A DNA stretch of 44,388 nucleotides, from NCBI GenBank assembly GCA_021801565.1, contig JAJYXV010000005.1, positions 1 through 44,388 on the forward strand, given 5' to 3'. Shown piece by piece: positions 3,606 through 36,453 of this stretch. The translations under genes were made by a program, and so were the position numbers. This DNA is from a bacterium. GTDB taxonomy: Bacteria > Patescibacteriota > Minisyncoccia > UBA6257 > GWB1-50-10. A model generated the notes under the pieces. That model worked only from the letters and a program-made list of their open reading frames with translations. It had not been told where the DNA came from and did no database searches. The first letter of the stretch is position 1, and each line of letters starts with the position of its first letter.

Positions 3606-3631
3606 GGGTACTATGACGCGTCCTAGTACCC
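3606..3631. repeat. CTATGACGCGTCATAG-family palindrome, copy 1 (one mismatch)
   Basis: GGGTACTATGACGCGTCCTAGTACCC. Confidence 0.85.
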
Positions 3632-6057: not shown

Positions 6058-7329
6058 TTAACTCTTTTTCAAAAATCCCGCACGTCTTTTCTTCCTATGA
6101 AACGCAATTGCAAACCGATGTGCTTCATCTCTCACTCGTATAAGCGTCTGAAGCGATACCCATAATGGTTTTTCCCCTATAATATCCGTTCTTTTTCTTT
6201 TCACACCCTTCGCCATACCGATAACCGGAACAAGAATATGTATTTCTTTCAGCACATCTTTTACTATATTCACTTGCCCCAATCCGCCATCAACAAGAAT
6301 TAAATCCGGACGCTTCCAACTATTATGAAACCTCCTTTTCACCACCTCTTTTAACATCCCTGTATCATTTTGTCCCTCAACTGTTTTTATATGAAACTTC
6401 CTATATTCGCTTTTTTCTGGTTTATTATTTGAAAAAACAATCATTACCCCAACCGAATTTGTTCCCGATATATTTGAAATGTCATAACCTTCTATTCGCT
6501 TTCCGCCCGAGGCGGGCTGATCGTAAGCTGGCGCGTCTTCGTTTTTCAGCAATGCCGTGTCATTGATATGACTCAATGCAAATACTTGTCGTCGTATTTT
6601 CTCGGCTCTCTCAAATTCCAACCTCTTACTTGCGGTATTCATTTCTTTCTCAAGATTTTTCACAATTTTTTCTTTTTTTCCCTGGAAAAACAGAATGATA
6701 TTTTTAACTGCCTGTGCATATTCTTTTTTTGATATTTTCCCGATACATGTTCCGGGGCAAAGTCCAATTTGATAATTGAAACATGGCTTATTCGCATTAT
6801 TTGTTTTATTTGTGTTATTCGCGATTACTTTTTGATGGTCGTTCCACGGGAAAATTTTTCGTATAATCCGGAGTGCCTCGCGAACACTCGAAGCCGACAC
6901 AAATGGTCCGGCAGCATATTGATAGATATCCTCAGAGGTTTGCATATCTTTCCCTCTTATCAAAAGAACCCGAGGAAATTCTTCGTTGGTAAACGCAACA
7001 TAAAGAAAACTTTTGTCGTCTTTCTCTTGTATATTAAATGGGGGTTGATACTGTTTAATAAGCTTCGATTCAAGAATAAGCGCTTCAAGTGCCGAATCAG
7101 TTTCTTTTATGTCTATTCTTGCAATTCCGCTTACCATTTTTTGAATACGAGTGTCGTGCTTGCCCGCCCGTAAATTCTGATTGGAGGAGGGTGGACGCAT
7201 GAAATAACTCGAAACTCGTCGTTTTAGATTTGCCGCTTTTCCAATATACAAAACTAATCCGTGCGCATCTTTCATAATATACACACCAGGAGTCTCTGGA
7301 ATGTTTTTATATAACTTCTGCATACCCAC
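6058..7329 (-). CDS. uvrC: Excinuclease ABC subunit C (short form, no C-terminal HhH)
   Basis: GIY-YIG (PGVY..YIGKA), UVR domain, RIEGYDIS, PDLILVDGG and RDEAHRFA motifs. Confidence 0.9.
   Translation of the reverse strand: MGMQKLYKNIPETPGVYIMKDAHGLVLYIGKAANLKRRVSSYFMRPPSSNQNLRAGKHDTRIQKMVSGIARIDIKETDSALEALILESKLIKQYQPPFNIQEKDDKSFLYVAFTNEEFPRVLLIRGKDMQTSEDIYQYAAGPFVSASSVREALRIIRKIFPWNDHQKVIANNTNKTNNANKPCFNYQIGLCPGTCIGKISKKEYAQAVKNIILFFQGKKEKIVKNLEKEMNTASKRLEFERAEKIRRQVFALSHINDTALLKNEDAPAYDQPASGGKRIEGYDISNISGTNSVGVMIVFSNNKPEKSEYRKFHIKTVEGQNDTGMLKEVVKRRFHNSWKRPDLILVDGGLGQVNIVKDVLKEIHILVPVIGMAKGVKRKRTDIIGEKPLWVSLQTLIRVRDEAHRFAIAFHRKKRRAGFLKKS
6502..6516. repeat. TCCGCC..GGCGG palindrome in frame in uvrC
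   Basis: TCCGCCCGAGGCGGG; encodes PASGG just before RIEGYD. Confidence 0.55.
6788..6823. repeat. 9-bp tandem repeat x4 in uvrC
   Basis: TTATTCGCA TTATTTGTT TTATTTGTG TTATTCGCG; encodes the ANNTNKTNNANK stretch. Confidence 0.7.
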
Positions 7330-11126: not shown

Positions 11127-13643
11127 TTACTTCAAAACTTTTCTCAAATATTCAGCAGTAAAGCTTCCTGCTTTTCTTGAAACTGCCTCAGGCGTTCCTT
11201 CAGCAACAATCTTTCCTCCCTTATCCCCTCCTTCAGGACCTAAATCAATCACCCAATCAGCAGTTTTTATCACATCCAAATTATGTTCGATCACAACCAC
11301 TGTATTTCCCCTATCTACTAATCGATGAAGTACGTTTAACAGCTGCTGCACATCGGCAAAATGAAGTCCGGTGGTTGGTTCATCTAGAAGATAGATCGTT
11401 TTTCTCGTGTCTCGTTTCCCAAGTTCCGCGCCCAATTTTACACGTTGCGCTTCTCCACCCGAAAGTGTCGTTGCCGACTGACCCAATTGTAAATACCCAA
11501 GCCCAACTTCGTCCAAAATATTCAACCGATCATGAAGCCATGGAATATCTTCAAAAAACTTTGTTGCTTCTTCAATCGTCATCTTCAACACGTCGTAAAT
11601 ATTTTTACCCTTATATTCCACTTCAAGTGTTTCCCTATCAAAACGTTTTCCCTTACAGACATCACATTCGACATACACCGTCGGTAAAAAGTGCATCTCA
11701 ATTGCAATCACTCCGTGTCCCTCACAGTTTTCACATCTTCCTCCTTTCACATTAAAACTAAAACGCCCTGGTTTATACCCACGCACACGCGCATCTTCAG
11801 TTGCGGTAAAAATATCGCGAACAAATGTCCATGCACCAACATAGGTCGCTGGATTTGAACGTGGCGTTCTTCCGATCGGCGATTGATCGATGTTTATGAC
11901 CCGATTAATATATTCCAATCCCAACATTCCTTTATGGGCACCAACAGAATAATTTGCTCCATTAAATTTATTTGCGAGTGTTTTCCACAGCACATCATAC
12001 AACAACGTACTCTTCCCCGATCCCGATACACCGGTAATTGCCACAAAACGACGGAGCGGAATTGAAATATCGATGTTTTGTAAATTATTTTCACTTGCTT
12101 CCTTTATTTTTAAAAACGTATGATCTTTTTTTACTCCCCTCCGTTCTTTCGGAATCTGCACATATTCTTCTCCACGAAGATATTTGAGTGTAAGTGAGTT
12201 ATTTTTTTTATCTTTTAAAATCTCAGGAATGGGTCCCTCCGCGACAATCTTTCCTCCGTGTACACCGGCACCCGGACCAATATCCACAAGATAGTCGGAC
12301 TCCCGAATTGTTTCTTCATCATGCTCCACCACAATCACCGAGTTCCCCAAATCTCGAAGTTCATGAAGTGTTTTGATGAGCTTTGCATTGTCTCTCTGGT
12401 GAAGCCCAATGGTCGGTTCATCAAGAATATATAATGTGCCAGTAAGTCGGGATCCAATCTGTGAGGCAAGACGAATACGTTGTGCCTCTCCTCCGGAAAG
12501 TGTTCCCGCTTTTCGCTCGAGAGTGAGATATTCAAGTCCTACATCAATCATAAATTTCAATCTGTTTTTTATTTCGCGCAGAGGTACTTCCGCAACTTCC
12601 AAAAGTTTTTCATTTTTTATTTTTTCCACTTCTGCAAAAAATGCATATGCATCTTTTATCGGCATCGCTACCACCGAAGAAATATTTTTCCCCTCAATAA
12701 GCACATGTAACGCTTCCTCTTTTAATCTCTTTCCCATACATTTTTCACATATTTTTTCCGACCACACACTTTCCACACCAAGCCCATGACATTCAGGACA
12801 CGCACCATAAGGACTATTAAACGAGAAAAGGCGTGGCTCTATTTCGGGAAAAGAAAATCCATCATTCGGACATGTGAATTTTGCGGAAAGTGATGTTTCC
12901 TTTTCAGTGATAATCGTTACTACATTATTTCCATATTTAAGCCCTGATTCAATTGCCTCAGAAAGACGAAGGCGATTATCTTTATTTGAGAAATCTAATC
13001 CTGTGGGAATACGGTCAACCAGAAGATCAATGGTGTGTTGTTTATATCGCGAAAGATCAATGCGATCACGAAGAGAGTAGAATTTCCCATCAACGCGTAC
13101 CTCTGAAAACCCCGCATTTAAAAAATCATAGAGCATCTGGTAGTATTCTCCCTTTCGTCCACGTACCACTGGGGCGAGAATAACGAGATTTCTTTTCTTT
13201 TCATTCTGCAAAGAAATTTGCACCGCAACATCAACAATTTGTTCATTTGTCATCTTGCGTATTTCTTTTCCACATATCGGACAAAACGGAGTTCCCACGC
13301 GAGCAAAAAGAACGCGAAGATAATCATATATTTCGGTAATTGTTGCAACTGTCGAGCGCGGATTTCCCGAGTGGCTTTTCTGATCAATGGAAATTGCCGG
13401 AGAAAGTCCCTCAATTTCATCAACATCGGGTTTATCAAGTCTCCCTAAAAATTGTCGCGCATATGCAGAAAGCGACTCGATATACCTTCTTTGTCCTTCC
13501 GCAAATATGGTATCAAACGCAAGTGACGACTTCCCCGATCCGGAAAGTCCAGTAAACACCACCATCTTATTCCTCGGAATTTTAAGATTAATATTTTTGA
13601 GATTGTGCTCTCTTGCACCCTTAATATGTATAAAGTCATTCAT
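11127..13643 (-). CDS. uvrA: Excinuclease ABC subunit A
   Basis: Two ABC cassettes ([24 protein letters not shown] twice) and Zn fingers. Confidence 0.98.
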
Positions 13644-13838: not shown

Positions 13839-15728
13839 TTATTCTTCATCTTCTTCGGTGCCTTTTGATTTATACCAAAGATATAACGCATAGAGAATAA
13901 GAAAGAAAATAAAGATAACAAAAAATGTAATTCCGTTTGTTCCTTCACCAAGAGAAAGAATACTCGCAAGCAATTTCAATTGTGGAGATCCATTATCGAG
14001 AGTTGAAAATCCAAGCACACTTGGAATTTGCGCACCAGCAAGTTTGTTATAATTTTCTGCATCAAGCACATATGCATTTTCTCCGAATGAGATTGCTCCC
14101 GCTCCAGGCTTTTTTGCAACGAATCGGAATACTCCAAACACCTTTTTTTCAGTGAACCCTTCCGGATATCCAGCGGTTTTGACAATAATCCCCTTATCCA
14201 CATCATGGATATCATACTCAGGACGAATCACTGGAACCCAGTTGTCCCAATAGGTCACCGATTTGAATTCCAAAAGATCTTTTGGATATTGCAATTTCAC
14301 CTGTGCGGTATATGTCTTTTCATTTGTTCCTGGTTCGACAGTCACTATTGCATAAAATTCTTGCCCCTCTACCACAGTAAGTCTTGTCGGAGCAAAAGAA
14401 ATAATCGTTCCTGATTGTGTCTTATAATTTTTATCCACTTTCATTTCCGTCCAATCTCTCATAAGTTCATACACATCGCGGTTATCCACTTCTCCATCTT
14501 TATTAAGATCGGCAAGATTATTTTTTCGTGAGACACCCCAATTTACCATAAGCGTATTAAAATCGAGTGTTCGGGCGCCTAATACCTCGCCACGAGGCGG
14601 CTGTGGAACCGGAATTGGAGTAGGAATCGGTGTTGGTGTGGGAATAGGAGTGGGGGTCGGAATTGGAGATGGTTCATTCCCATATTGAATATCATCAAAA
14701 ACGATTATACTTTCCTCATTATTTGAATTCCTATATTTTACATATACCGTCTTCTTCCCATACCCTTCCGAAAGAATCCAAGATTTTTTATCTGTATATG
14801 CCTCCCATGATGCATCAGAAACATCTGCCTTATTTGAAATCTTCATCTGTGAAGCACTCACCGCTGTAAGTGTGAGATTCACATCACGCGTATCAGTTCT
14901 CTCTGCATCATTATTTATAATTATTTTATAACCCGCTACCGGAAGAATAGGGCCCCCTCCGGATCCACCCCCGCCACCGCCTCCACCGCCACCCCCTCCA
15001 GAATTTGTGGTTGCGGAAGTAGTTACAAACGGAGATCCTGAACCACACAAATTAAAAATTTTGATTGCAAAATAATATTTTGTGTTTGTTTCTAATCCGT
15101 TCACTGTCATTGTTTGTGTCTGTCCTGAAAATGGATGAGGGGTTCCTGTATATTGTGTAGAAATATAAAATGTTCCCTCGGTTATTTGATTTTTTGAATA
15201 ACGAAGATCAAATTCAGAAAGATCTGATTGTGTTTGTGTCTGCCAAGAAAGTGTAATAACACTTGCAGAATTTGGTGTCCCAGAAAAGTTCATTACGGAA
15301 AACGGGCTCGGACATCCTTGTCCACCCCCTCCACCACCTCCAGGAGAAACAGTAATAAATGCGATGCCAGAAAATTCACCCATAATATTGTAGAGTTTTA
15401 ATCCAAAATAGTATGTGGTGTTTGCATTCAGTCCATTCACAGTCATTGTCTGTGTTTGTCCTGAAAATGGATGAGGAGTTCCTGTATATTGCGTCGCTAT
15501 AGAAAAATTTCCATCGTTCAATGGACTTGTTGAATAACGCAATTCAAATTCAGATAAATCACTTTCTGCTGGGGTTTTCCATGAGAGAGATGCTGATGTT
15601 CCTGATATGCTACCGGTAAAGTTTGATACAGACGAAGGAACCGCGGCATACGTAAACGGCACCGAAACTACCGAAATCACGATAATTGAGATAACGGTAA
15701 AAATTGTATAAAGATGATTATTTTTCAT
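13839..15728 (-). CDS. Secreted, C-terminally membrane-anchored protein: two FN3 domains, dockerin-like motif, cohesin-like domain
   Basis: Signal peptide; duplicated FN3 module; poly-G and PT linkers; ADLNKDGEVDNRDV EF-hand loop; cohesin-like beta domain; C-terminal TM. Confidence 0.8.
   Translation of the reverse strand: MKNNHLYTIFTVISIIVISVVSVPFTYAAVPSSVSNFTGSISGTSASLSWKTPAESDLSEFELRYSTSPLNDGNFSIATQYTGTPHPFSGQTQTMTVNGLNANTTYYFGLKLYNIMGEFSGIAFITVSPGGGGGGGQGCPSPFSVMNFSGTPNSASVITLSWQTQTQSDLSEFDLRYSKNQITEGTFYISTQYTGTPHPFSGQTQTMTVNGLETNTKYYFAIKIFNLCGSGSPFVTTSATTNSGGGGGGGGGGGGSGGGPILPVAGYKIIINNDAERTDTRDVNLTLTAVSASQMKISNKADVSDASWEAYTDKKSWILSEGYGKKTVYVKYRNSNNEESIIVFDDIQYGNEPSPIPTPTPIPTPTPIPTPIPVPQPPRGEVLGARTLDFNTLMVNWGVSRKNNLADLNKDGEVDNRDVYELMRDWTEMKVDKNYKTQSGTIISFAPTRLTVVEGQEFYAIVTVEPGTNEKTYTAQVKLQYPKDLLEFKSVTYWDNWVPVIRPEYDIHDVDKGIIVKTAGYPEGFTEKKVFGVFRFVAKKPGAGAISFGENAYVLDAENYNKLAGAQIPSVLGFSTLDNGSPQLKLLASILSLGEGTNGITFFVIFIFFLILYALYLWYKSKGTEEDEE
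15097..15491 (-). repeat. Internal module duplication (15097-15155 vs 15433-15491)
   Basis: Near-identical 59-bp segments 336 bp apart, both encoding QYTGTPHPFSGQTQTMTVNG. Confidence 0.85.
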
Positions 15729-15782: not shown

Positions 15783-15931
15783 CCCAGTAGTGCCTGCCTG
15801 CGGTAGGCAGGAAAACTCAATTTTATATGTATAAACTCATGTACTCATAAAAAATCTAAAAATTTATGTATTACTTTGATATATAAAAATCTTTTTGTCG
15901 CGAAACGACATATTGAATTTCTACTACTGGG
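15783..15931. mobile_element. MITE-like element (CCAAGTAGT family), copy 2, with a nested palindrome
   Basis: CCCAGTAGTG[CCTGCCTGCGGTAGGCAGG]AAAACTCAAT ... ATTGAATTTCTACTACTGGG; 5-bp direct repeat TCAAG at 15778-15782 and 15932-15936. Confidence 0.8.
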
Positions 15932-15964
15932 TCAAGACCCCCCTATTTATTGGCCGCTAAAAGT

Positions 15965-15993
15965 AAAAAGCCCTAGAATTTCTAGGGCTTTTT
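15965..15993. terminator. Intrinsic terminator
   Basis: AAAAAGCCCTAGAATTTCTAGGGCTTTTT. Confidence 0.8.
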
Positions 15994-15998
15994 TATAA

Positions 15999-17720
15999 TT
16001 ACTTTATGAGAATCATCTTCTTTGTCGCCGAAAAATTTCCGGCCTGGATTGTATAAAAATATAATCCGGCGGATAAATTTGAAGCACTAAAAGAAGTTTG
16101 ATATCTTCCTGCTGCCTTTTCTGAATTAACGAGCATCGCTATTTTTTTGCCAAGAACATCATATACAGTAATTTTTACATTACTTGGTGCCGGCAACTGA
16201 TAACTAATAACCGTTGTTGGGTTGAATGGATTTGGATAATTCTGTTCCAACTTAAATTCGGTTGGAATTTTATTCTCATCAACACTAGTTGTGTTTCCGA
16301 TCATAAAATTCCAAACATCTGACCACTCACCCACAACACCCGCATTTCCTATCCCTCTCACTCTCCAATAATAAAGAGTGTTTGCATATAAGATAGAAAC
16401 GTTTTGGTAATTGTTTGGTGGTGTTGCAGCATATTCTAAATTTAAAAATGCATTTGTTTTAGAAATCTGCAACTCATAGTTCAACACGCCCGAGACAGTA
16501 GTCCACACAAATGAAATCGGCGTTACCATTCCAGTCGAATTATTTGCTGGTGACAAGTGAATTGGTTTAGTAATGGTTATATTATTTACCGTAGTAAATG
16601 ATCTCCACGCAGACCACCCAATGCCGCTAGCTCCAATTGACCCAAGTCTCCACCAATATATCTGATTAGATTTCAGGTTATTAAGAGTTATTGGGCTTGA
16701 AGTGTAAACGAGGTTGTTTACCAACGTTCCTGTTTGCGAGTTCTCTCGCAACTCAAGTTGATATCCAGAAATTCCAGTTACAGAAGTGTAGTTTAATGTA
16801 CCACCGTTTTGAGGAAAACCAGTCAATCCATCCGCAGGAGCACCAAGCGTCGGTGCGTCGGGAACCACCGTTCCTGTGCCAGTACTAAAACTTCTTGTAG
16901 AACTATAAGCCGATGTCTGTCCATTCTCACTCGCATTTACTCTCCAATAATAGATTGTATTGGCAAGTAAATTTGAAAGAGTGTAAGAAGTTGCACCCGT
17001 AACATTTTGATTCACAACAAATGAGGCAAACACCTGACTCGTTGAAACCTGAACATTGTAACTCACTATTCCACCGGAAACGGGAGTAACTGCATTCCAA
17101 TTTAGTGTCCCGCCATTTAGTGCAAAGTTTGTTGCGCCATCCAAAGGAGTTGTAAGAACCGGAATTCCAGGTGTTATCCCAGCTTGAGGAATATCAATAG
17201 GAGTTTCTGTACCACCGGTCACTCTCCAAATTCCAAGAATATAAACTGAAAAATTTCCAGCTGCTTGTCCCGGAGATTGTGAAAATGAAATCTTTAATTG
17301 GTCGGCATTAAAAGCTGTTGCACTGAAAACATTCACCAAATAATCGGTGACAATTCCGTTGTTAGACAACTCAACTAATCCACTTGTCCCCTCTACTCCT
17401 GTTGAATTAAAAAATCCAATCCCCATTTTCATTTTTAATGAAGATGAAGGACATGCGGCTCGAATCTTTAACTGTGTCTGAACTGGCATGTTTTGAACAG
17501 CAAACGCTTTTCGAAATTTCACATAAGGCACGTCACCTGTTTGTGGATAACTGATTACAACACTTCCGCTGAACAAATAGGCATTCGCCAAATTGTAAGA
17601 CGAAAGAGAAGCTCCGCCGGTTGCATTACTCGTTCCAAATGGAATATACCCAGTGTCCTGAGCAAAAATGTTTGTTACAGTTACAAAAAGAATTACGAAA
17701 AGAAATAACAATCGTTTCAT
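15999..17720 (-). CDS. Secreted FN3-like repeat protein with a T9SS (Por) C-terminal sorting domain
   Basis: Signal peptide; three modules ending YWRV/WWRL; C-terminus LEQNYPNPFNPTT...VYDVLG...GLYFY...KKMILIK. Confidence 0.9.
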   Translation of the reverse strand: MKRLLFLFVILFVTVTNIFAQDTGYIPFGTSNATGGASLSSYNLANAYLFSGSVVISYPQTGDVPYVKFRKAFAVQNMPVQTQLKIRAACPSSSLKMKMGIGFFNSTGVEGTSGLVELSNNGIVTDYLVNVFSATAFNADQLKISFSQSPGQAAGNFSVYILGIWRVTGGTETPIDIPQAGITPGIPVLTTPLDGATNFALNGGTLNWNAVTPVSGGIVSYNVQVSTSQVFASFVVNQNVTGATSYTLSNLLANTIYYWRVNASENGQTSAYSSTRSFSTGTGTVVPDAPTLGAPADGLTGFPQNGGTLNYTSVTGISGYQLELRENSQTGTLVNNLVYTSSPITLNNLKSNQIYWWRLGSIGASGIGWSAWRSFTTVNNITITKPIHLSPANNSTGMVTPISFVWTTVSGVLNYELQISKTNAFLNLEYAATPPNNYQNVSILYANTLYYWRVRGIGNAGVVGEWSDVWNFMIGNTTSVDENKIPTEFKLEQNYPNPFNPTTVISYQLPAPSNVKITVYDVLGKKIAMLVNSEKAAGRYQTSFSASNLSAGLYFYTIQAGNFSATKKMILIK

Positions 17721-17787
17721 GAACGACCTCCTTATTTTGTTTTATTAATTAAAAAGTAAAAATTTGAGTACTTTTAGCACTGGTTAC

Positions 17788-17816
17788 AATATACTACAGA
17801 ACTCTCAATTTGTCAA
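17788..17816 (-). promoter_or_regulatory. Sigma70-type promoter of the T9SS-CTD gene
   Basis: TTGACA-N17-TATATT; AAGGAGGT RBS before ATG 17720. Confidence 0.75.
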
Positions 17817-17921: not shown

Positions 17922-17945
17922 GCCACTATGACGCGTCATAGTGGC
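17922..17945. repeat. CTATGACGCGTCATAG-family palindrome, copy 2
   Basis: Perfect 24-bp GCCACTATGACGCGTCATAGTGGC, 1 bp after the stop of the TrpR-like gene. Confidence 0.9.
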
Positions 17946-17946
17946 A

Positions 17947-18381
17947 TTAGTATGATACATACGTCGTTCCAAACTTTGTCCTTACCCTTCTTCTTTTTAT
18001 CTGGCGATTGGGAACAGATGACACTTGGCTTTTTACCTGCTTCCCATTACTCTCTTCGCGATAACTTTGATATTTATCCCTATTTATTGACTTCACAATA
18101 CCGCTGATTGTTTGTGGTGAAATCCACAATTCATTACCAATTTCTTTATAACTTTTTCCAGAATTAATCATCTGAGACACAGCTACACGCATTATTATAT
18201 TATGACACTCATAAGAGGTAATAAACGATTGTAGAGATATCTTATCTTTTACAATGTTTTTCCAACATTCAGATTCCCACTCTTTTCGAGAATTATATTT
18301 ACTTATCGGCGGTATGGCGGAAAAAATATTTTTTCTACCTTTCTTCTTTGTTTTATATGAATTCTCTTCCATAAATACCAC
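17947..18381 (-). CDS. TrpR/YerC-like helix-turn-helix protein
   Basis: IIMRVAVSQMINSGKSYKEIGNELWISPQTISGI resembles the TrpR-family HTH; start may be 18372. Confidence 0.7.
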   Translation of the reverse strand: MVFMEENSYKTKKKGRKNIFSAIPPISKYNSRKEWESECWKNIVKDKISLQSFITSYECHNIIMRVAVSQMINSGKSYKEIGNELWISPQTISGIVKSINRDKYQSYREESNGKQVKSQVSSVPNRQIKRRRVRTKFGTTYVSY

Positions 18382-18409: not shown

Positions 18410-18447
18410 CACACAGGGTACTATGACGCGTCATAGTACCCTGTGTG
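18410..18447. repeat. CTATGACGCGTCATAG-family palindrome, copy 3
   Basis: Perfect 38-bp CACACAGGGTACTATGACGCGTCATAGTACCCTGTGTG between the uvrB stop and the TrpR-like start. Confidence 0.92.
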
Positions 18448-18472: not shown

Positions 18473-20506
18473 TTATTTAGAAATTTCACTTTTCTTCTTT
18501 CCCTTTTTCATCTTTTCTTCTTCTTTTTTTAATATTTTCAGTTCATCTCTTAATATCGCCGCAAGTTCAAAATTAAGTTCCTCAGCTGCCTTTTTCATCT
18601 CTTGTTCTTTTTCTCTTATTATTAACTCAAATCCTTTCTTTGATTTTGGAATCGGCAATATTTCGAGTTTTAATATTTCATCAGCTGGCAATATATCTTT
18701 TATTTCTTTGATGATAGTCTTCGGGATAATGTGATGTTTCTTATTATACGCAAGTTGTATCTTTCTTCTTCGATCTGTCTCTCGTACTGCTCGTTCAATT
18801 GAGCCGGTGATGGTATCTGCATACATCACTACCTCTCCCCGCACATTTCGTGCTGCACGCCCAATTGTCTGTACGAGCGACGTTTCGCTTCGAAGAAATC
18901 CCTCTTTGTCAGCATCAAGAATCGCAACAAGTGAAACCTCGGGAAGATCGAGTCCTTCGCGCAATAGATTAACTCCAACAAGTACGTCAAAATTTCCTTT
19001 GCGTAAATTCGTAAGAATTTTTATTCGATCAAGTGTTTTCACATCGCTATGGAGATAGGTCACTTTTATTTTTTTCTCTTCAAGATATGCGCTTAAATCC
19101 TCTGCCATACGCTTCGTAAGCGTAGTTACCAATACACGTTCTTTTCCGCCAGTTGGCGGATTCACGCGCTCTTCAATCCGCGGGATAAGATCGTCAATCT
19201 GTCCCTTCACAGGACGAATGGTAATTTTTGGATCAACAAGACCCGTGGGTCGAATAATTTGTTCAACCGTCTGCACGCTTTTTTTCTTCTCATAAACACT
19301 AGGAGTTGCGGAGGTAAAAATAATCTGCCCCACTCTTTCTTCAAATTCCTTAAATGTAAGCGGACGATTATCAATCGCCGAAGGAAGACGGAATCCATAT
19401 TCAACAAGTGTTTTTTTACGCGATGCATCCCCCGCATACATTCCCTGTATTTGCGGCACGGTCACGTGGGATTCATCAATAATAGTGAGAAAATCAGCTT
19501 GTCCTGAATTTGTTGAATGAGGAAAATAATTTAAAAGCGTATCGGGTGGTTCCCCTGCTACACGACCCGAAAGATGTCGAGAGTAATTCTCAATTCCATT
19601 ACAATATCCAATCTCACGCATCATCGCTAAATCAAATTTTGTCCTCCGCTCAAGTCGTTCCGCCTCAAGAAGTTTCCCCTCGTTTTCAAATTTCTTAAGT
19701 TGCTCTCTCAATTCTTCCTGAATTGCTTTTATTGCGCGTGCCCGATCGCCCACGGGAGTAATAAAGTGTTTTGCAGGTGCAATATAAACCTCACGTAATG
19801 ATGGCGTTTTCTCCTTTCGAAACCCTTCAGCCGGAACTATTTCGAAAATTGAGATGATTTTTCCCTTTTTGACTTCAAAAAGATAGACGAGCTCCCTATC
19901 GGGTGGCATGATCTCCCATTGATCACCACGAAGACGAAATGTTCCACGTTTTAAATCTGCATTCGTACGCGTATATTGAAGTTCAATAAGTTTTCGTACA
20001 AACGTATTCCGATCAAGTGTCCCCCCAACCTTTAAATGGAAAATATTTTCTGCATACACCTCCGGCGCTCCCAGTCCGTAGATACACGACACCGATGCAA
20101 CTACAATTACATCCTTACGCGTCAAGAGTGCTGTTGTCGCCGCATGACGAAGTTTATCGATTTCGTCGTTAATCATTGCCTCTTTCCCTATGTAGGTATC
20201 AGAAGAAGGTATGTATGCCTCGGGTTGGTAATAATCATAATATGAGACAAAATAATTCACAGAATTATGTGGAAATAATTCACGTAACTCATTCGTAAGC
20301 TGCGCCGCAAGCGTTTTATTGTGTGCAATGACAAGCGTTGGCTTTCCAATTTTTTCTATTACATTTGCAACGGTAAATGTTTTTCCCGATCCGGTTACCC
20401 CGAGAAGCGTTTGATGTGAGTATCCCTTTTTGATTCCACCAATAAGTTTTCTGATAGCCTCCGGTTGATCTCCCGCTGGTTTATTTTTAGAGACAATCTT
20501 AAACAT
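18473..20506 (-). CDS. uvrB: Excinuclease ABC subunit B
   Basis: [18 protein letters not shown] beta-hairpin, DESH, GRAAR and C-terminal UVR domain. Confidence 0.98.
19145..19160. repeat. TCCGCCAGTTGGCGGA palindrome in frame in uvrB
   Basis: Encodes PPTGG before ERVLVTT. Confidence 0.65.
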
Positions 20507-27598: not shown

Positions 27599-27672
27599 TG
27601 GTGGACCTTAGGGGAATCGAACCCCTATCTCCCGGATGCAAACCGGGTGCTCTACCACTAAGCTAAAGGCCC
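27599..27672 (-). tRNA. tRNA-Ala(UGC)
   Basis: Cloverleaf with CCCGG-TTTGCAT-CCGGG anticodon arm, GTTCGA T-loop, G3:U70 pair and encoded CCA. Confidence 0.97.
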
Positions 27673-27683
27673 TTAGTTAATTT

Positions 27684-28007
27684 TTAACGATTGTCACCGG
27701 CTCCTTTCACCGCATTTCTCTCAACTCGCGACCGTAATTTTTCCAAGTTCATCGATGCAATATTCTCAAGCGATAACCCCAATTCCAAACCCACTCGAAC
27801 AATATACCACAATACATCTCCGAGTTCTTTTCCTATCTCCTTTTTTGCCTCATCATCCAGAATATCATTCTTGTCGCGTATCACCTTTTTTACTTTTTCT
27901 GCAACTTCACCCGCTTCTCCACATAGTCCAAGTACCGGATATTCAATTCCCTTCTTTCGCTCAAAGATATATCGCTCAACAAACTTTTGATACTCATTAA
28001 ATTCCAT
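27684..28007 (-). CDS. MazG-like nucleoside triphosphate pyrophosphohydrolase
   Basis: LGLCGEAGEVAEKVKK, ELGDVLWY and NLEKL.SR motifs. Confidence 0.92.
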   Translation of the reverse strand: MEFNEYQKFVERYIFERKKGIEYPVLGLCGEAGEVAEKVKKVIRDKNDILDDEAKKEIGKELGDVLWYIVRVGLELGLSLENIASMNLEKLRSRVERNAVKGAGDNR

Positions 28008-28013
28008 AAAAGG

Positions 28014-28088
28014 TGGTGGGCATGGGAGGGATCGAACCTCCGACCTCTGTCTTATCAGGACAGCGTTCTACCACTGAACTACATGCCC
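28014..28088 (-). tRNA. tRNA-Ile(GAU)
   Basis: Cloverleaf with CTGTC-CTGATAA-GACAG anticodon arm, GTTCGA T-loop and encoded CCA. Confidence 0.97.
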
Positions 28089-28340: not shown

Positions 28341-28865
28341 TTACTTTCTAAAATACACCCTTCCCCGGATAGATACATTTGATTTTTCTTCCCGGTTATC
28401 AAACGTTAAACTTTCTACTCCCATGAGATATCGAAATTCTTCGAGTTTTTTCAAAAAACTTCCGACCGTTTCAAGACTTCCTTGGATGGTAAGGCTTATC
28501 CCCACCGAACCAAGTTGCGGTGCATTTGTGCTTTGCTCTCCTAAAAACGAAAACGACATCTCGAGCTTTTCCGATGATGCAAGATATTGAAAATCTTTTC
28601 TTAAATTTATCAACTCATCTTTCTCTGGGATTATTTCCTGCAATATTTCTGAATATTCTTTTGCTTTTCCTGTATATTGGGATCGCACCGCAGAATATGA
28701 TTGCACCGACGCATTCCAATCAGAAACTTCTTTCCGTGCAGTAACGATTTTTTCGCTATTTGCGCTTATACGTGAACCACAAACAAGAATTCCTATAATA
28801 AAAATAACCACAATTCCTGCGGTGGTACCAATATTCGTGAATAATTTTTTCTTAAATTCTTGCAT
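28341..28865 (-). CDS. PilO-like type IV pilus assembly protein
   Basis: N-terminal TM, coiled coil, then ISLTIQGS...FLKKLE.FRYLM.VESL ferredoxin-like fold. Confidence 0.65.
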   Translation of the reverse strand: MQEFKKKLFTNIGTTAGIVVIFIIGILVCGSRISANSEKIVTARKEVSDWNASVQSYSAVRSQYTGKAKEYSEILQEIIPEKDELINLRKDFQYLASSEKLEMSFSFLGEQSTNAPQLGSVGISLTIQGSLETVGSFLKKLEEFRYLMGVESLTFDNREEKSNVSIRGRVYFRK

Positions 28866-28921: not shown

Positions 28922-29833
28922 ATGTTTCAACCTTACGACATATATGAAATAACTCCAGAAGACATACGTTTTCCTTCCTTATTAAAAGAGATGCAGAATC
29001 CACCACAACGGTTTTTTCTTAAGGGAATGCTCCCAGAATCATCACTCTATATATCCATTGTTGGAACCCGCAAGGCAACATATGAAGGAAAAGAACTTGC
29101 AAAACAGATTGCACGACGACTTGCGGAAAAAAACATTATTGTGGTAAGCGGACTTGCGCTCGGTATTGATGCGGCGGCACATGATGGAGCACTTATAGGG
29201 GGAGGAAAAACAGTTGCAGTGCTTGCAAACGGTCTTGATACAATATACCCCCGTCAACACGAACAACTTGCACACAAAATACTTGAATCCGGAGGAGGAA
29301 TTATCTCTGAATACCCGATCGGTACTCCTGCGCTTCCCCATCAATTTCTCGAACGTAATAGAATTATAAGCGGTATTTCTTCCGCTACAATTGTGATTGA
29401 GGCTCCACTTCGTTCCGGTTCTATCGTTACCGCTCGTACCGCCGCCGAACAAGGACGAGAGGTATTCGTTTTCCCCGGACCGATACAGAATCAAAACTAC
29501 AGAGGCTCCCATCAACTTATTCGAAATGGAGCGCGACTTGTATCAAGTTTCGATGATATTGTTGAAGATATTTCTGAATTAATAAAAGAATATGAAACAG
29601 ACAAAAAAAATTCGCTATGTGAAAATTTGAACAATGATATGATGGAATTGATTAATGATGAAGAAAAAGTAATTATGAAAATACTAAAAGAAGCCGGAAC
29701 GCCCCTCTCCGTTGACAATATCATTGAGTCAACTACACTGGAATCTAACGTGGTCCGTCAACATCTTACCTTTCTCCTTCTTGATGGACACATAAAGGAA
29801 CAAGGAGGATTTTTTTCACCCTCATCTTCATAA
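28922..29833 (+). CDS. dprA: DNA processing protein A
   Basis: IVGTRKAT, VSGLALGIDAAAH and FLERNRIISG motifs; C-terminal winged helix. Confidence 0.95.
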   Translation: MFQPYDIYEITPEDIRFPSLLKEMQNPPQRFFLKGMLPESSLYISIVGTRKATYEGKELAKQIARRLAEKNIIVVSGLALGIDAAAHDGALIGGGKTVAVLANGLDTIYPRQHEQLAHKILESGGGIISEYPIGTPALPHQFLERNRIISGISSATIVIEAPLRSGSIVTARTAAEQGREVFVFPGPIQNQNYRGSHQLIRNGARLVSSFDDIVEDISELIKEYETDKKNSLCENLNNDMMELINDEEKVIMKILKEAGTPLSVDNIIESTTLESNVVRQHLTFLLLDGHIKEQGGFFSPSSS

Positions 29834-35579: not shown

Positions 35580-36086
35580 TTATTCTTTTATTATTTTCTT
35601 TTCTTTCGCCGGTATCTTTTTTAACTTTTTTAATGCCTCAACGGTTGCCATTGCATTGGTGAGTTTATTTGTTGTCCTTCCTATAATTTTAGCAGATATA
35701 TCTTTTACCCCAGCAAGCTCAAGAATTGCACGACATGAACCTCCCGCGATTAATCCATTTCCCTGACGTGCTGGCTTCAATCGAACGCGTGCCGCACTAT
35801 ATTTTGCCTCAACATCATGAAGAATGGTCCGCTTATCTTTTAATTCGAGAAATACAATATTTTTCACTGCCTGGTGTTTGGCCTTCTGTACTGCGGCAGC
35901 AACATCAAGACCCTTTGCAACACCAACACCAACCTTTCCTCTTCGATCACCCACAACAATAGTTGCACGGAAACTGAAACGTTTTCCTCCTGCAACAACA
36001 CGGGTCACGCGACGCACTTCAAGCACCTTATCTTCATATTCGCTTTTCTTTTGATTCATCCTTGGTTGATTCATTCTTGGTTGCAT
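35580..36086 (-). CDS. rpsE: 30S ribosomal protein uS5
   Basis: RVVAGGKRFSF and NGLIAGG motifs; start at 36086 avoids overlap with rplR. Confidence 0.96.
   Translation of the reverse strand: MQPRMNQPRMNQKKSEYEDKVLEVRRVTRVVAGGKRFSFRATIVVGDRRGKVGVGVAKGLDVAAAVQKAKHQAVKNIVFLELKDKRTILHDVEAKYSAARVRLKPARQGNGLIAGGSCRAILELAGVKDISAKIIGRTTNKLTNAMATVEALKKLKKIPAKEKKIIKE
36051..36083. repeat. 15-bp tandem repeat at the rpsE 5' end
   Basis: TTGATTCATCCTTGG TTGATTCATTCTTGG TTG; encodes QPRMNQPRMNQ. Confidence 0.85.
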
Positions 36087-36090
36087 AAAA

Positions 36091-36453
36091 TTAAAAATTA
36101 AGTCCGCCCTCTCGTGCACCATCCGCGACTGCTTTTACACGTCCATGATAGCGATAGCTTGCACGATCAAATACCGCCTTTGTAATTTCTTTTTCTTTTG
36201 CTTTCTTTGCCAAAAGTTTTCCAATTTCTTTCGAAATATCCTGTTTTTTACTCTTTACATTTTTCACCGACAGAGAAGAAGCAGAAACAATCGTTTTTCC
36301 ACTACTGTCATCAATAAGTTGAGCATAAATATGTGCATTGCTTCTAAACACCGAAAGACGTGGACGGTCAGCGGTTCCTCGGGAAACGGACTTGCGGACA
36401 CGAGCTAATCTTCTTATTTTTCTTTTGTGTGTTATGTGTTCTTTAATACTCAT
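36091..36453 (-). CDS. rplR: 50S ribosomal protein uL18
   Basis: [10 protein letters not shown] and [17 protein letters not shown] motifs. Confidence 0.97.

Follow-up and report, generated by a model that had tools for sequence, protein, structure and literature searches.

A strain-variable cassette in a Patescibacteria genome encodes a probable adhesin-type protein with a T9SS type A C-terminal domain

The window analyzed here, a whole stretch of 44,388 nt, carries on its reverse strand a gene for a protein laid out as a predicted signal peptide, a CBM-like head, 3 FN3-like domains and a T9SS type A C-terminal domain (CTD). The features of this gene and of its surroundings are as follows:

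13839..15728, minus strand: gene for a 629-aa surface protein, downstream of the CTD gene in 8/8 loci
15941..17709, minus strand: replaced allele cassette, ~68% identical at the nucleotide level to MAG GCA_027423605.1 inside identical flanks
15965..15993, minus strand: intrinsic terminator hairpin, a 13-bp stem with a 3-nt loop, followed by a U-run
15999..17720, minus strand: ORF encoding the CTD protein, 573 aa, ATG start
16002..16265, minus strand: T9SS type A CTD, aa 486-573, from profile matches and motifs
16213..16256, minus strand: DNA encoding EQNYPNPFNPTT, where the Logan unitigs of this allele branch and depth rises 3-30 fold
16287..17165, minus strand: three FN3/Ig_Rha78A_N-like domains forming a predicted rod-like stalk (Pfam, AF2, Foldseek)
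17166..17657, minus strand: head domain, a predicted beta jelly-roll, aa 22-185 (AF2, Foldseek)
17661..17720, minus strand: predicted Sec signal peptide, aa 1-20, cleaved between NIFA and Q (by eye, AF2 helix)
17726..17733, minus strand: ribosome-binding site (RBS) AAGGAGGT, 5 nt 5' of the ATG, read directly
17788..17816, minus strand: sigma-70-like promoter TTGACA-N17-TATATT, a consensus match only
17947..18381, minus strand: TrpR/YerC-like HTH gene, directly upstream of the CTD gene

The gene lies among uvrA/B/C, murA, alr, topA, dprA, secY and a ribosomal protein operon. The best named relatives of the SecY encoded in the window are those of 'Patescibacteria group bacterium' MAG033 (91% identity) and Ca. 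Jorgensenbacteria (75-80% identity), followed by Ca. Brennerbacteria and Ca. Paceibacterota. In addition, the gene for L30 is missing from the spc operon, where S5 (35580-36122) directly adjoins L15 (35147-35575). Judged by these sequence features, the contig is truly of Patescibacteria (Jorgensenbacteria-like) origin, and the CPR housekeeping context described in the original prediction is borne out.

The same prediction had treated the gene as a self-contained expression unit. The RBS and the gene's own terminator hairpin (15965-15993, -18.9 kcal/mol, z = -2.4) agree with this, while the promoter is weaker: the TTGACA-N17-TATATT site at 17816-17788 has the best score (11/12) among 17 promoter-like sites in 5 kb, a number not above the shuffle expectation of 15.6, and it was therefore graded as a consensus match. 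Three metatranscriptomes from a mine-drainage study yielded no sequence of this organism; the sole match there was an unrelated contig touching the codons for NYPNPFNP. The GC content of the CTD gene (0.393) and its GC3 (0.307) are typical of the window. Its codon usage is somewhat atypical (L1 distance 7.4, against 3.5-5.8 for window genes of similar length), which could reflect amino-acid composition or a continuing import of DNA.

Seven orthologues of the CTD gene, each from an independent assembly, occupy the same site, and by a wider count the gene has this position in no fewer than 8 assemblies made independently in separate studies (synteny set: GCA_040757555.1, GCA_027423625.1, GCA_027423605.1, two assemblies from ENA and four from Logan). 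The order uvrB, TrpR-like gene, CTD gene, ~630-aa surface protein, uvrA is conserved, and the flanks of these loci diverge in step, at 75-100% nucleotide identity. The chromosomal site is thus fixed in at least 5 related species, two of which are separated by a housekeeping dS of ~1-1.6. Because the orthologues from independent assemblies occupy the same place, a chimeric assembly, the outcome named in the original prediction as speaking against it, is ruled out. In most related loci, the TrpR/YerC-like gene is again a neighbour of the CTD gene; in the window, an 18-bp palindrome occurs on either side of it (17925-17942 and 18420-18437).

The protein ends in ...KLEQNYPNPFNPTTVISYQLPAPSNVKITVYDVLGKKIAMLVNSEKAAGRYQTSFSASNLSAGLYFYTIQAGNFSATKKMILIK. 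This tail matches PF18962 (Por_Secre_tail) from Pfam with 48.8 bits (cut-off 27) and TIGR04183 ('T9SS type A sorting domain') from NCBIfam with 49.2 bits (cut-off 23). The match lies at the extreme C-terminus, at aa 495-570 of 573, and covers profile positions 2-70/72. It contains the motifs NYPNPFNP, YDxLG and GxYFY, the ending TKKMILIK and a Lys close to the C-terminus, and it also matches, by sequence, the translocon-bound F. johnsoniae CTD in PDB 8GLJ chain D (E = 2.5e-4). A Lys near the C-terminus of CTDs is almost invariant, functionally important and in contact with PorV (PMC10994853); at position -6, it is found in 30/30 CPR tails and 166/174 FCB tails. No other block of the allele alignment is as well conserved as the tail. 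Among the clade's type-2 CTDs, which cover at least 4 syntenic CPR species, it is under purifying selection, with a dN/dS of 0.05-0.12 at an amino-acid identity of 83-88% and a dS of 0.5-1.2. The literature on CPR bacteria in general describes them as having no outer membrane, and the lineage is held to lack a T9SS as well; no T9SS components were found among the annotated ORFs of the 44-kb window, the largest of which is UvrA (838 aa). By profile scores and SecY affinity, a Patescibacteria genome nonetheless encodes a genuine protein of the T9SS type A CTD kind, as originally proposed.

Upstream of the tail, the predicted signal peptide (MKRLLFLFVILFVTVTNIFA, followed by QD) has, as judged by eye, the expected n-region (MKR), h-region (LLFLFVILFVTVT) and c-region (NIFA, cut before Q), and residues 4-19 are helical in the AF2 model; this part of the original prediction holds as well. 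In the alignment, the Gln at +1 is invariant and the site of cleavage between Ala and Gln is present in 8/8 alleles. The stalk consists of three domains (aa 186-285, 286-378 and 379-478) that score 45.2 bits against fn3 (cut-off 25) and 45.5 bits against Ig_Rha78A_N in Pfam. AF2 models them as all-beta beads, for which Foldseek returns multi-FN3 ectodomains at E-values of 1e-13 to 1e-9. As a fold search with the full-length model yielded only generic FN3 strings, the head was modeled separately (AF2 pLDDT 85, pTM 0.80). It then matched CBM28/17/27/4/11 and the carbohydrate-binding domains of phage tailspikes (E ~1e-4, TM 0.5-0.6, 10-16% identity), a moderate resemblance of predicted fold to carbohydrate-binding modules. 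By sequence, a phmmer search of 1.84 billion representatives found no relatives of the head outside its own cluster, and Pfam gave zero matches even at E = 1. The protein has no recognizable transmembrane segment, lipobox or sortase motif as an anchor, so it may simply be released from the cell.

Taken together, the stalk and tail share 35-43% identity with a set of proteins in which every named member comes from an FCB taxon, and outside the clade the named matches are FCB-labelled proteins only. The tail alone is 55-66% identical to CTDs of Ignavibacteriales/Melioribacteraceae, in keeping with the Ignavibacteria-like style noted at the outset, and the consensus of the CPR tails is essentially that of FCB tails. 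In a neighbour-joining tree, which is a weak phylogeny as it rests on a 90-aa tail, the two CPR tail types form clades with 197/200 and 200/200 bootstraps. They are not sisters (7/200 bootstraps) and are both placed among FCB tails. Cleavage between Ala and Gln, a signature of Bacteroidetes signal peptides (PMC5837995), is found in all 8 alleles and in 20/22 members of a second CTD family from other Paceibacterota, described below; the other two members have no recognizable signal peptide. An origin of the gene in phages was considered and rejected, with no relative found in IMG/VR. Given the Ignavibacteriota-type tail and the FCB-only named matches, a horizontal origin from FCB bacteria is the best reading of these sequence affinities. 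The original prediction of horizontal acquisition is thereby supported as regards descent from FCB bacteria and amended in its form: with a fixed site in at least 5 species, this is not a one-off insertion. Of the opposing idea, an old vertically inherited CPR clade lacking FCB affinity, the vertical residence is found, but the FCB affinity is strong, and so the acquisition is not refuted.

The most informative property of the locus did not figure in the original prediction: by sequence comparison, it is a hypervariable, mosaic and modular cassette. The flanks at 18511-17710 and 15940-5998 are 100% identical to MAG GCA_027423605.1 (locus L005; ~10.7 kb in total), while the ORF between them is only 68% identical at the nucleotide level. 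Mismatches to this locus are confined to 17709-15941. From one allele to the next, the types of head (A/B/C), of stalk and of tail are reassorted into different combinations. The three head types are mutually unrelated (15-23% identity) and take the same position in different alleles. One allele (P0006) shares 88% identity with the window protein in the head and 36-42% in the stalk, while another (P0005) shares 20% in the head and 81-85% in the stalk. Compared with locus L001, the head shows a dS of 0.15, against housekeeping values of 1.0-1.6, and the tail is only 60% identical. No positive selection was seen on the head, with a dN/dS of 0.14-0.27 within head type A; diversity arises via module replacement and not via point substitutions.

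The branching of the unitigs at 16213..16256 marks this stretch as the probable crossover point between stalk and tail. The stretch encoding NYPNPFNP reaches a depth of up to 300x in the same metagenomes, against 5-10x for this genome. As no exact 32-nt match to it was found in the fetched FCB loci, the shared metagenome stretches would belong to other, unsampled genes or alleles. In run X8, ORF-specific unitigs reach a depth of ~3.7x where the flanks reach ~8-9x, and the 3' flank also occurs as a 5.8x variant with the four differences of the L005 type; run X6 contains the body, at 8x, but not this tail. These Logan contig depths indicate that alleles coexist in one population, although this reading of allele frequencies is soft, since Logan contigs show presence and not absence. 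The JGI metagenomes contained no additional full-length alleles and gave tail-only FCB matches.

Taking these results together, the explanation that we favor, and consider reasonably probable, is that of a Sec-exported protein of adhesin type, modular in build and descended from FCB bacteria (Ignavibacteriota/Bacteroidota), whose gene has become a resident cassette, variable between strains, in a clade related to Jorgensenbacteria. The signal peptide would carry the protein over the single membrane and, going by its sequence, be cut before Gln21. The three FN3-like domains would then act as a rod that presents the N-terminal CBM-like jelly-roll head, and the head may bind a surface glycan or another ligand, most plausibly on a host cell. 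In a cell lacking an outer membrane, a T9SS-type beta-sandwich would be unable to serve as an outer-membrane export signal; instead, the tail probably serves for binding or anchoring, as a folded 'foot' retained under the purifying selection observed above. This foot could have as its partner the neighbouring cohesin-like protein with its membrane anchor, the wall of the cell itself or a component of the host. Specificity would be altered by exchange of modules or of the entire ORF, rather than by point mutation, through homologous recombination at conserved stretches, namely the codons for the signal peptide and for NYPNPFNP and the region of the terminator, a step supported by the mosaic pattern and the clean breakpoints. 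Incoming DNA probably arrives via natural-competence machinery; genes for DprA and a PilO-like protein lie in the window. The CTD protein is a good candidate for host contact because it is FCB-derived, kept under selection and swapped by module between otherwise identical strains.

Among the alternatives for the tail, we first weighed an attachment of the CTD to the cell's own surface, for example to a cohesin-like module of the 629-aa protein encoded directly 3' of it, so that the two would together build a single surface fibre. That protein has a signal peptide, 2 FN3 domains, poly-Gly and Pro/Thr linkers and a C-terminal transmembrane anchor, complementing a CTD protein that has no anchor of its own; from its sequence, it is a candidate partner or scaffold. 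Its dockerin and cohesin matches, however, are below the Pfam thresholds (E 0.017 and 0.028), and the adjacency of the two genes in all 8 loci is weak evidence among close relatives. Each of the two genes also has signals of its own, a terminator for the CTD gene and an upstream region for the 629-aa gene, the second CPR family lies in a different locus that has no such neighbour, and, as a hint, the L005 tail differs while the neighbouring protein is 100% identical. We thus regard self-attachment as unlikely.

Less likely still is that the tail keeps its original binding function and aims it at the T9SS of the host, tethering the epibiont or, in one variant, even leaving the protein covalently fixed to the host's surface lipopolysaccharide. 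A tail consensus indistinguishable from that of Ignavibacteriota CTDs, strong purifying selection within the CPR clade and the retention of the PorV-contacting Lys in all 30 CPR proteins would all fit such mimicry, as would the binding of CTDs by the extracellular loops of PorV (PMC10994853) and the abundance of other CTD-encoding sequences in the same metagenomes. However, over half of the surface to which a CTD binds comes from the interior of the SprA pore, and free PorV should bind it with only low affinity (PMC10994853). Moreover, the conserved CTD motifs specify the fold rather than binding, so that folding alone explains their conservation (PMC10994853). We accordingly give only a slim chance to the idea that T9SS tails serve some Paceibacteria as grappling hooks, with the adhesin tail recognized externally by the PorV carrier or attachment complex of an Ignavibacteriota/Bacteroidota host and possibly ligated by PorU to host lipopolysaccharide. 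Were it true, swaps of head, stalk and tail would retune which host strain is caught, and the tail type would predict the hosts of these Paceibacteria lineages.

That the tail is a mere relic, imported together with the FN3 stalk and without a role in Patescibacteria, appears very improbable. The missing T9SS context and the generic Ig-like sandwich of the CTD would suit a passenger, and frequent re-import from FCB donors could keep the tail canonical without selection in CPR bacteria; yet its low dN/dS across syntenic CPR species and its standing as the best-conserved alignment block speak against this, as does its retention in two independent CPR families (30 proteins, 0 truncated). Finally, an ORF stemming from a co-assembled FCB genome and joined to the CPR contig at short repeats or hairpins can practically be dismissed: although Logan unitigs break at 15789-15822, 18410-18447 and 16230-16254, and near-identical short stretches at the NYPNPFNP codons exist in other community sequences, the gene keeps its position in independent assemblies, the ORF unitigs of runs X1-X4 are as deep as those of the flanks, its GC and GC3 fit those of the surrounding DNA, and the breaks at 15789-15822 and 18410-18447, rejected as mis-joins, fall on a stem-loop and a perfect palindromic hairpin, a known effect in de Bruijn graphs. 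One of these two hairpins is conserved at the same place in L005.

The favored adhesin-type protein is relevant because hosts and ways of attaching to them are known for hardly any Paceibacteria (Parcubacteria). Here, a protein with a stalk and tail borrowed from FCB bacteria and an FCB-style signal peptide is kept under selection in a cell with no expected use for a T9SS signal, and module exchange between otherwise identical strains is the signature expected of a determinant of host range or host contact. This offers a concrete lead to Ignavibacteriota/Bacteroidota as donors, and perhaps hosts. It also suggests that a CTD fold of the T9SS kind can persist where its usual T9SS context is missing, a point of interest for what the domain does besides export. 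The NCBI pipeline already labels T9SS-type proteins in Patescibacteria MAGs; a full-text literature search found no papers discussing them.

Compared with known systems, the protein resembles the T9SS type A cargo of Ignavibacteriota/Bacteroidota (TIGR04183/PF18962), such as the FN3-rich surface proteins of Melioribacter and Ignavibacterium and the RemA/RemZ-type adhesins of Flavobacterium. It shares with them a Sec signal peptide with Gln at +1, a passenger of CBM-like and FN3 modules, and a canonical C-terminal CTD with all fold motifs, the conserved Lys and the tail identity given above. Unlike such cargo, it is encoded by a lineage held to have neither outer membrane nor T9SS, its head has no detectable sequence relative, and there is one CTD gene per locus, whereas several lie within 20 kb in 47/79 comparison loci from a genome collection (77 of the 79 being FCB-labelled).

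A second, larger CTD family, absent from the original prediction, occurs in other Paceibacterota: L013 (Ca. Nomurabacteria nzgw486) and P0241-P0262, the latter bearing the NCBI title 'T9SS type A sorting domain-containing protein [Candidatus Paceibacterota bacterium]'. It resembles the window protein in signal-peptide style, in its KKM.L.K tail (66% tail identity) and in its conserved site among housekeeping genes. It differs in having an unrelated passenger of ~330 aa, no FN3 stalk and another locus (glutaredoxin ... YtxH-PPDK-enolase), at which the gene is in some cases present twice in tandem. As 23 contigs carry one member without any difference, the family shows no sign of strain-level cassette swapping.

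In cultivated Patescibacteria (Saccharibacteria), surface adhesins are needed for epibiotic growth (PMC11665869). Compared by description rather than by sequence, these are similarly secreted or surface multi-domain proteins of reduced genomes with a presumed role in host contact, but T9SS tails are not reported there, and their function rests on genetics, whereas that of the window protein is inferred. The head shares its predicted jelly-roll fold with the beta-sandwich CBMs (CBM28, CBM17, CBM27, CBM4, CBM11) and phage tailspike domains, yet differs from the CBMs in its low identity, its lack of a Pfam match and the occurrence of three unrelated types in one position. In the capsule, O-antigen and adhesin loci of cultivated bacteria, allelic cassettes are replaced by recombination between conserved flanks. 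The present locus shares with such hypervariable surface-protein loci its identical flanks, highly divergent ORF, mosaic modules and coexisting alleles; it differs from them in consisting of a single gene in an uncultivated ultra-small bacterium, with modules that include a secretion-system tail foreign to the phylum.

At the sequence level, the protein encoded between uvrB and uvrA belongs to the type A CTD family, judging by a Por_Secre_tail domain at amino acids 495-570 (Pfam; 48.8 bits), a match to TIGR04183 'T9SS type A sorting domain' (NCBIfam; 49.2 bits, cut-off 23), and the alignment by sequence of its tail (E 2.5e-4) with PDB 8GLJ chain D, which is the CTD solved within the F. johnsoniae SprA/PorV translocon. 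The original prediction of a T9SS CTD protein with a signal peptide in a Patescibacteria genome is confirmed. The N-terminus, MKRLLFLFVILFVTVTNIFA followed by QD at the predicted cleavage site, is a typical Sec signal peptide; fn3 and Ig_Rha78A_N were also matched in Pfam, and no TM segment, lipobox or sortase motif was found in the protein. Modelled at full length with AlphaFold2, it is an all-beta, beads-on-a-string molecule (pLDDT 71) that structure comparison places close to multi-FN3 ectodomains. The head modelled alone forms a confident jelly roll (pLDDT 85, pTM 0.80), with CBM28, CBM17/28, CBM27, CBM4, CBM11 and phage tailspike carbohydrate-binding domains as its best structural neighbours (TM 0.5-0.6, E ~1e-4). 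The predicted architecture is thus that of a secreted or surface adhesin or glycan-binding protein. The promoter-like site, RBS and terminator each lie where the original prediction had placed them.

Features at and around the CTD gene
15999-17720, minus strand: CTD gene, encoding 573 residues
17816-17788, minus strand: promoter-like site, 11/12 matches
17726-17733: RBS of the CTD gene, AAGGAGGT
15965-15993: terminator of the CTD gene, 13-bp stem, -18.9 kcal/mol
15787-15811 (2682-2706 in L005, a locus in MAG GCA_027423605.1): GC-rich stem-loop GTAGTGCCTGCCTGCGGTAGGCAGG in the gap that separates the CTD gene from the next gene downstream, conserved in L005
13839-15728, minus strand: gene of a 629-aa surface protein, always directly downstream of the CTD gene
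17925-17942, 18420-18437 and 3610-3627: 18-bp perfect palindrome ACTATGACGCGTCATAGT, one copy with 1 mismatch

The palindrome occurs three times in the window against 0 copies expected by chance. Two of the copies lie on either side of the TrpR/YerC-like HTH gene that closely precedes the promoter of the CTD gene, and may serve as terminators, as operator sites or as both. The stem-loop stretch (~34 nt) shows 2-3x depth and several other sequence contexts in metagenomes, and is therefore a short repeated element. No expression of the window's CTD gene was seen in the metatranscriptome of run X14; a 614-nt contig there (depth 35) matches the window only at the 33 nt coding for NYPNPFNP (16212-16244, 3 mismatches), so that an unrelated CTD gene is expressed in that community.

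The gene is resident in Patescibacteria. The window carries uvrA/B/C, murA, alr, topA, dprA, def/fmt, secY-adk-map and the S10-spc ribosomal operon, and its S5 gene is directly followed by the L15 gene (35147-36122, minus strand) with no L30 gene between them, the absence of L30 being a CPR hallmark. The best named relatives of SecY belong to 'Patescibacteria group bacterium' (91%) and Ca. Jorgensenbacteria (75-80%), followed by Ca. Brennerbacteria and Ca. Paceibacterota. Full-length orthologues of the CTD protein (51-75% identity, 90-100% query coverage) are present in 3 NCBI MAGs, 2 ENA assemblies and 4 Logan assemblies, and the order uvrB, (TrpR-like HTH gene), CTD gene, ~630-aa surface protein, uvrA holds at every locus with enough assembled flank, the short contigs covering immediate neighbours only, always in that order. 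Nucleotide identity across the flanks of these loci is 75-100%. Across four metagenome runs, drawn from two studies, unitig depth over the ORF equals that of its flanks (about 10-14x); the unitig breaks coincide with a stem-loop (15789-15822) and a perfect palindromic hairpin (18410-18447), and the composition of the gene is native (GC 0.393, GC3 0.307). Considering this synteny across assemblies, matching depth, native composition and the hairpins at the breaks, chimeric assembly can in practice be ruled out, and we give an assembly artefact almost no chance. We also observed that uvrC (6058-7329), uvrA (11127-13643) and uvrB (18473-20506) all lie inside 15 kb, with variable surface-protein genes inserted between uvrB and uvrA, an arrangement kept in related MAGs. 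Separately, tRNA-Ile(GAT) and tRNA-Ala(TGC) lie ~340 nt apart (27599-28088, minus strand) in a window without an rRNA gene; the usual place of this pair is the 16S-23S spacer.

Beyond what had originally been observed, the CTD gene is a hypervariable, modular, swappable cassette. The TrpR-like, 629-aa, UvrA, p173 and patatin proteins of L005 are 100% identical to those of the window, while its CTD protein shares only 65% identity; the DNA is identical over 18511-17710 and 15940-5998, and all 576 of the 576 mismatching columns lie from 17709 (codon 4) to 15941 (just past the terminator). Between the window and the syntenic locus of another species (L001), housekeeping genes have dS 1.0-1.6, the head has dS 0.15 (91% amino acid identity), and the tail shares only 60% identity. 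In a per-module identity table the heads fall into three unrelated types, 15-23% identical to one another, the stalks into at least two types and the tails into two. Allele P0006 combines a head that shares 88% identity with that of the window with a stalk at only 36-42%, P0005 combines a head at 20% with a stalk at 81-85%, and the alignment of P0002 shows one additional FN3 repeat. The window allele's unitig graph forks precisely at the EQNYPNPFNPTT codons (16213-16256), with a 3-30 fold rise in depth at that point; in run X6 the gene body is present at 8x and the window's tail is absent; and in run X8 the ORF stands at ~3.7x against ~8-9x for its flanks, with a 3' flank variant at 5.8x carrying the four differences of L005. 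These data indicate that alleles coexist, with soft estimates of allele frequency, since Logan contigs are better at presence than absence. New combinations probably come from recombination that uses conserved stretches as anchors, namely the codons of the signal peptide and of NYPNPFNP together with the terminator.

Horizontal acquisition of the stalk and tail from FCB bacteria, as originally proposed, is well supported; that the donor was a host is a guess. Database matches outside the clade cover the FN3 stalk and tail only (~68% of the query, 26-43% identity), and all named ones are Ignavibacteria, Bacteroidota, Balneolales or Gracilimonas. Searched alone against one genome per GTDB species, the tail shares 55-66% identity with its counterparts in Ignavibacteriales, Melioribacteraceae and Ignavibacterium, and the CPR consensus practically equals that of 174 FCB tails. 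The phylogeny of the CTD that had been suggested as a check, a neighbour-joining tree of 183 tails, recovers the window's tail type (P0001 and P0003) in 197/200 bootstraps and that of the other six alleles in 200/200; the two are sisters in only 7/200 and lie scattered among FCB tails, so this tree of 92 columns, itself weak, lends no support to a CPR-specific tail lineage. Gln stands right behind the predicted cleavage site (after FA; window codon 21, 17658-17660) in 8/8 alleles, and the native neighbouring surface protein has no Gln there. With phmmer, the head (aa 22-185) found only its own cluster among 1.84 billion cluster representatives, and it had no Pfam match even at E = 1.

Such proteins are not unique to the window's clade within CPR. 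A 416-aa protein (L013 9392-10642, plus strand), encoded on a 336-kb contig of Ca. Nomurabacteria nzgw486, has a similar signal peptide, the tail end KKMILIK and a passenger unrelated to that of the window's protein. It has ~20 full-length relatives (38-71% identity); one full-length and one partial relative carry the NCBI name 'T9SS type A sorting domain-containing protein [Candidatus Paceibacterota bacterium]'. The site is conserved in the contigs examined, between glutaredoxin and YtxH-PPDK-enolase, a single member recurs unchanged on 23 contigs, and some genomes have two tandem copies.

Second-family genes in Paceibacterota
L169, 5421-6695 and 8001-9527
L170, also

Gln follows the predicted cleavage site in 20/22 proteins of this family, the remaining 2 having no recognisable signal peptide; in both families, its predicted position matches the 'Q-rule' for Bacteroidetes SPI substrates (PMC5837995). 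A full-text literature search found no paper discussing T9SS tails in Patescibacteria.

We think it reasonably probable that the protein is a Sec-exported, rod-shaped adhesin whose FCB-derived tail is a folded binding or anchoring module, not an export signal, and whose specificity is reset by module replacement. Sec would export the rod to the surface, where the variable CBM-like head would touch a ligand on another cell and the tail would bind or anchor to a partner; recombination, presumably preceded by natural transformation, would then exchange modules. A PilO-like protein (28341-28865, minus strand) and DprA (28922-29833, plus strand), parts of a pilus/competence apparatus, are encoded beside topA and could provide the uptake route for cassette-replacing DNA. 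It is unlikely, in our estimate, that the tail instead docks on the adjacent membrane-anchored 629-aa protein. That protein combines a signal peptide, two FN3 domains with poly-Gly runs between them, a Pro/Thr linker and, at its C-terminus, a TM anchor. Sub-threshold matches there to dockerin (E 0.017) and cohesin (E 0.028) speak weakly for docking; L005 pairs a different tail with an identical copy of the neighbour, a combination that lends no support to co-evolution of the two. Binding of the tail from outside to host PorV or the attachment complex appears less likely still.

The tail is maintained in CPR rather than decaying, and its fold is certainly under selection there. No other block of the alignment is as well conserved, and in the syntenic species tail type 2 retains 83-88% amino acid identity at dS 0.5-1.2, with a dN/dS of 0.05-0.12 that indicates constraint as tight as, or tighter than, that on the stalk. 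That the tail is a relic is contradicted by these data, and we consider it very improbable. In translocon structures the conserved motifs of the CTD determine its fold and make no contact with the translocon, with the exception of an almost invariant, functionally important Lys close to the C-terminus (PMC10994853). This Lys, at position -6, is found in 30/30 CPR proteins and 166/174 FCB tails, a retention suggestive of selection beyond the fold. The CTD gene is real, and of more interest than a plain horizontal-transfer oddity: a phylum that to our knowledge should lack T9SS is home to a T9SS-type cargo protein, which persists there under selection and in the form of a swappable cassette.
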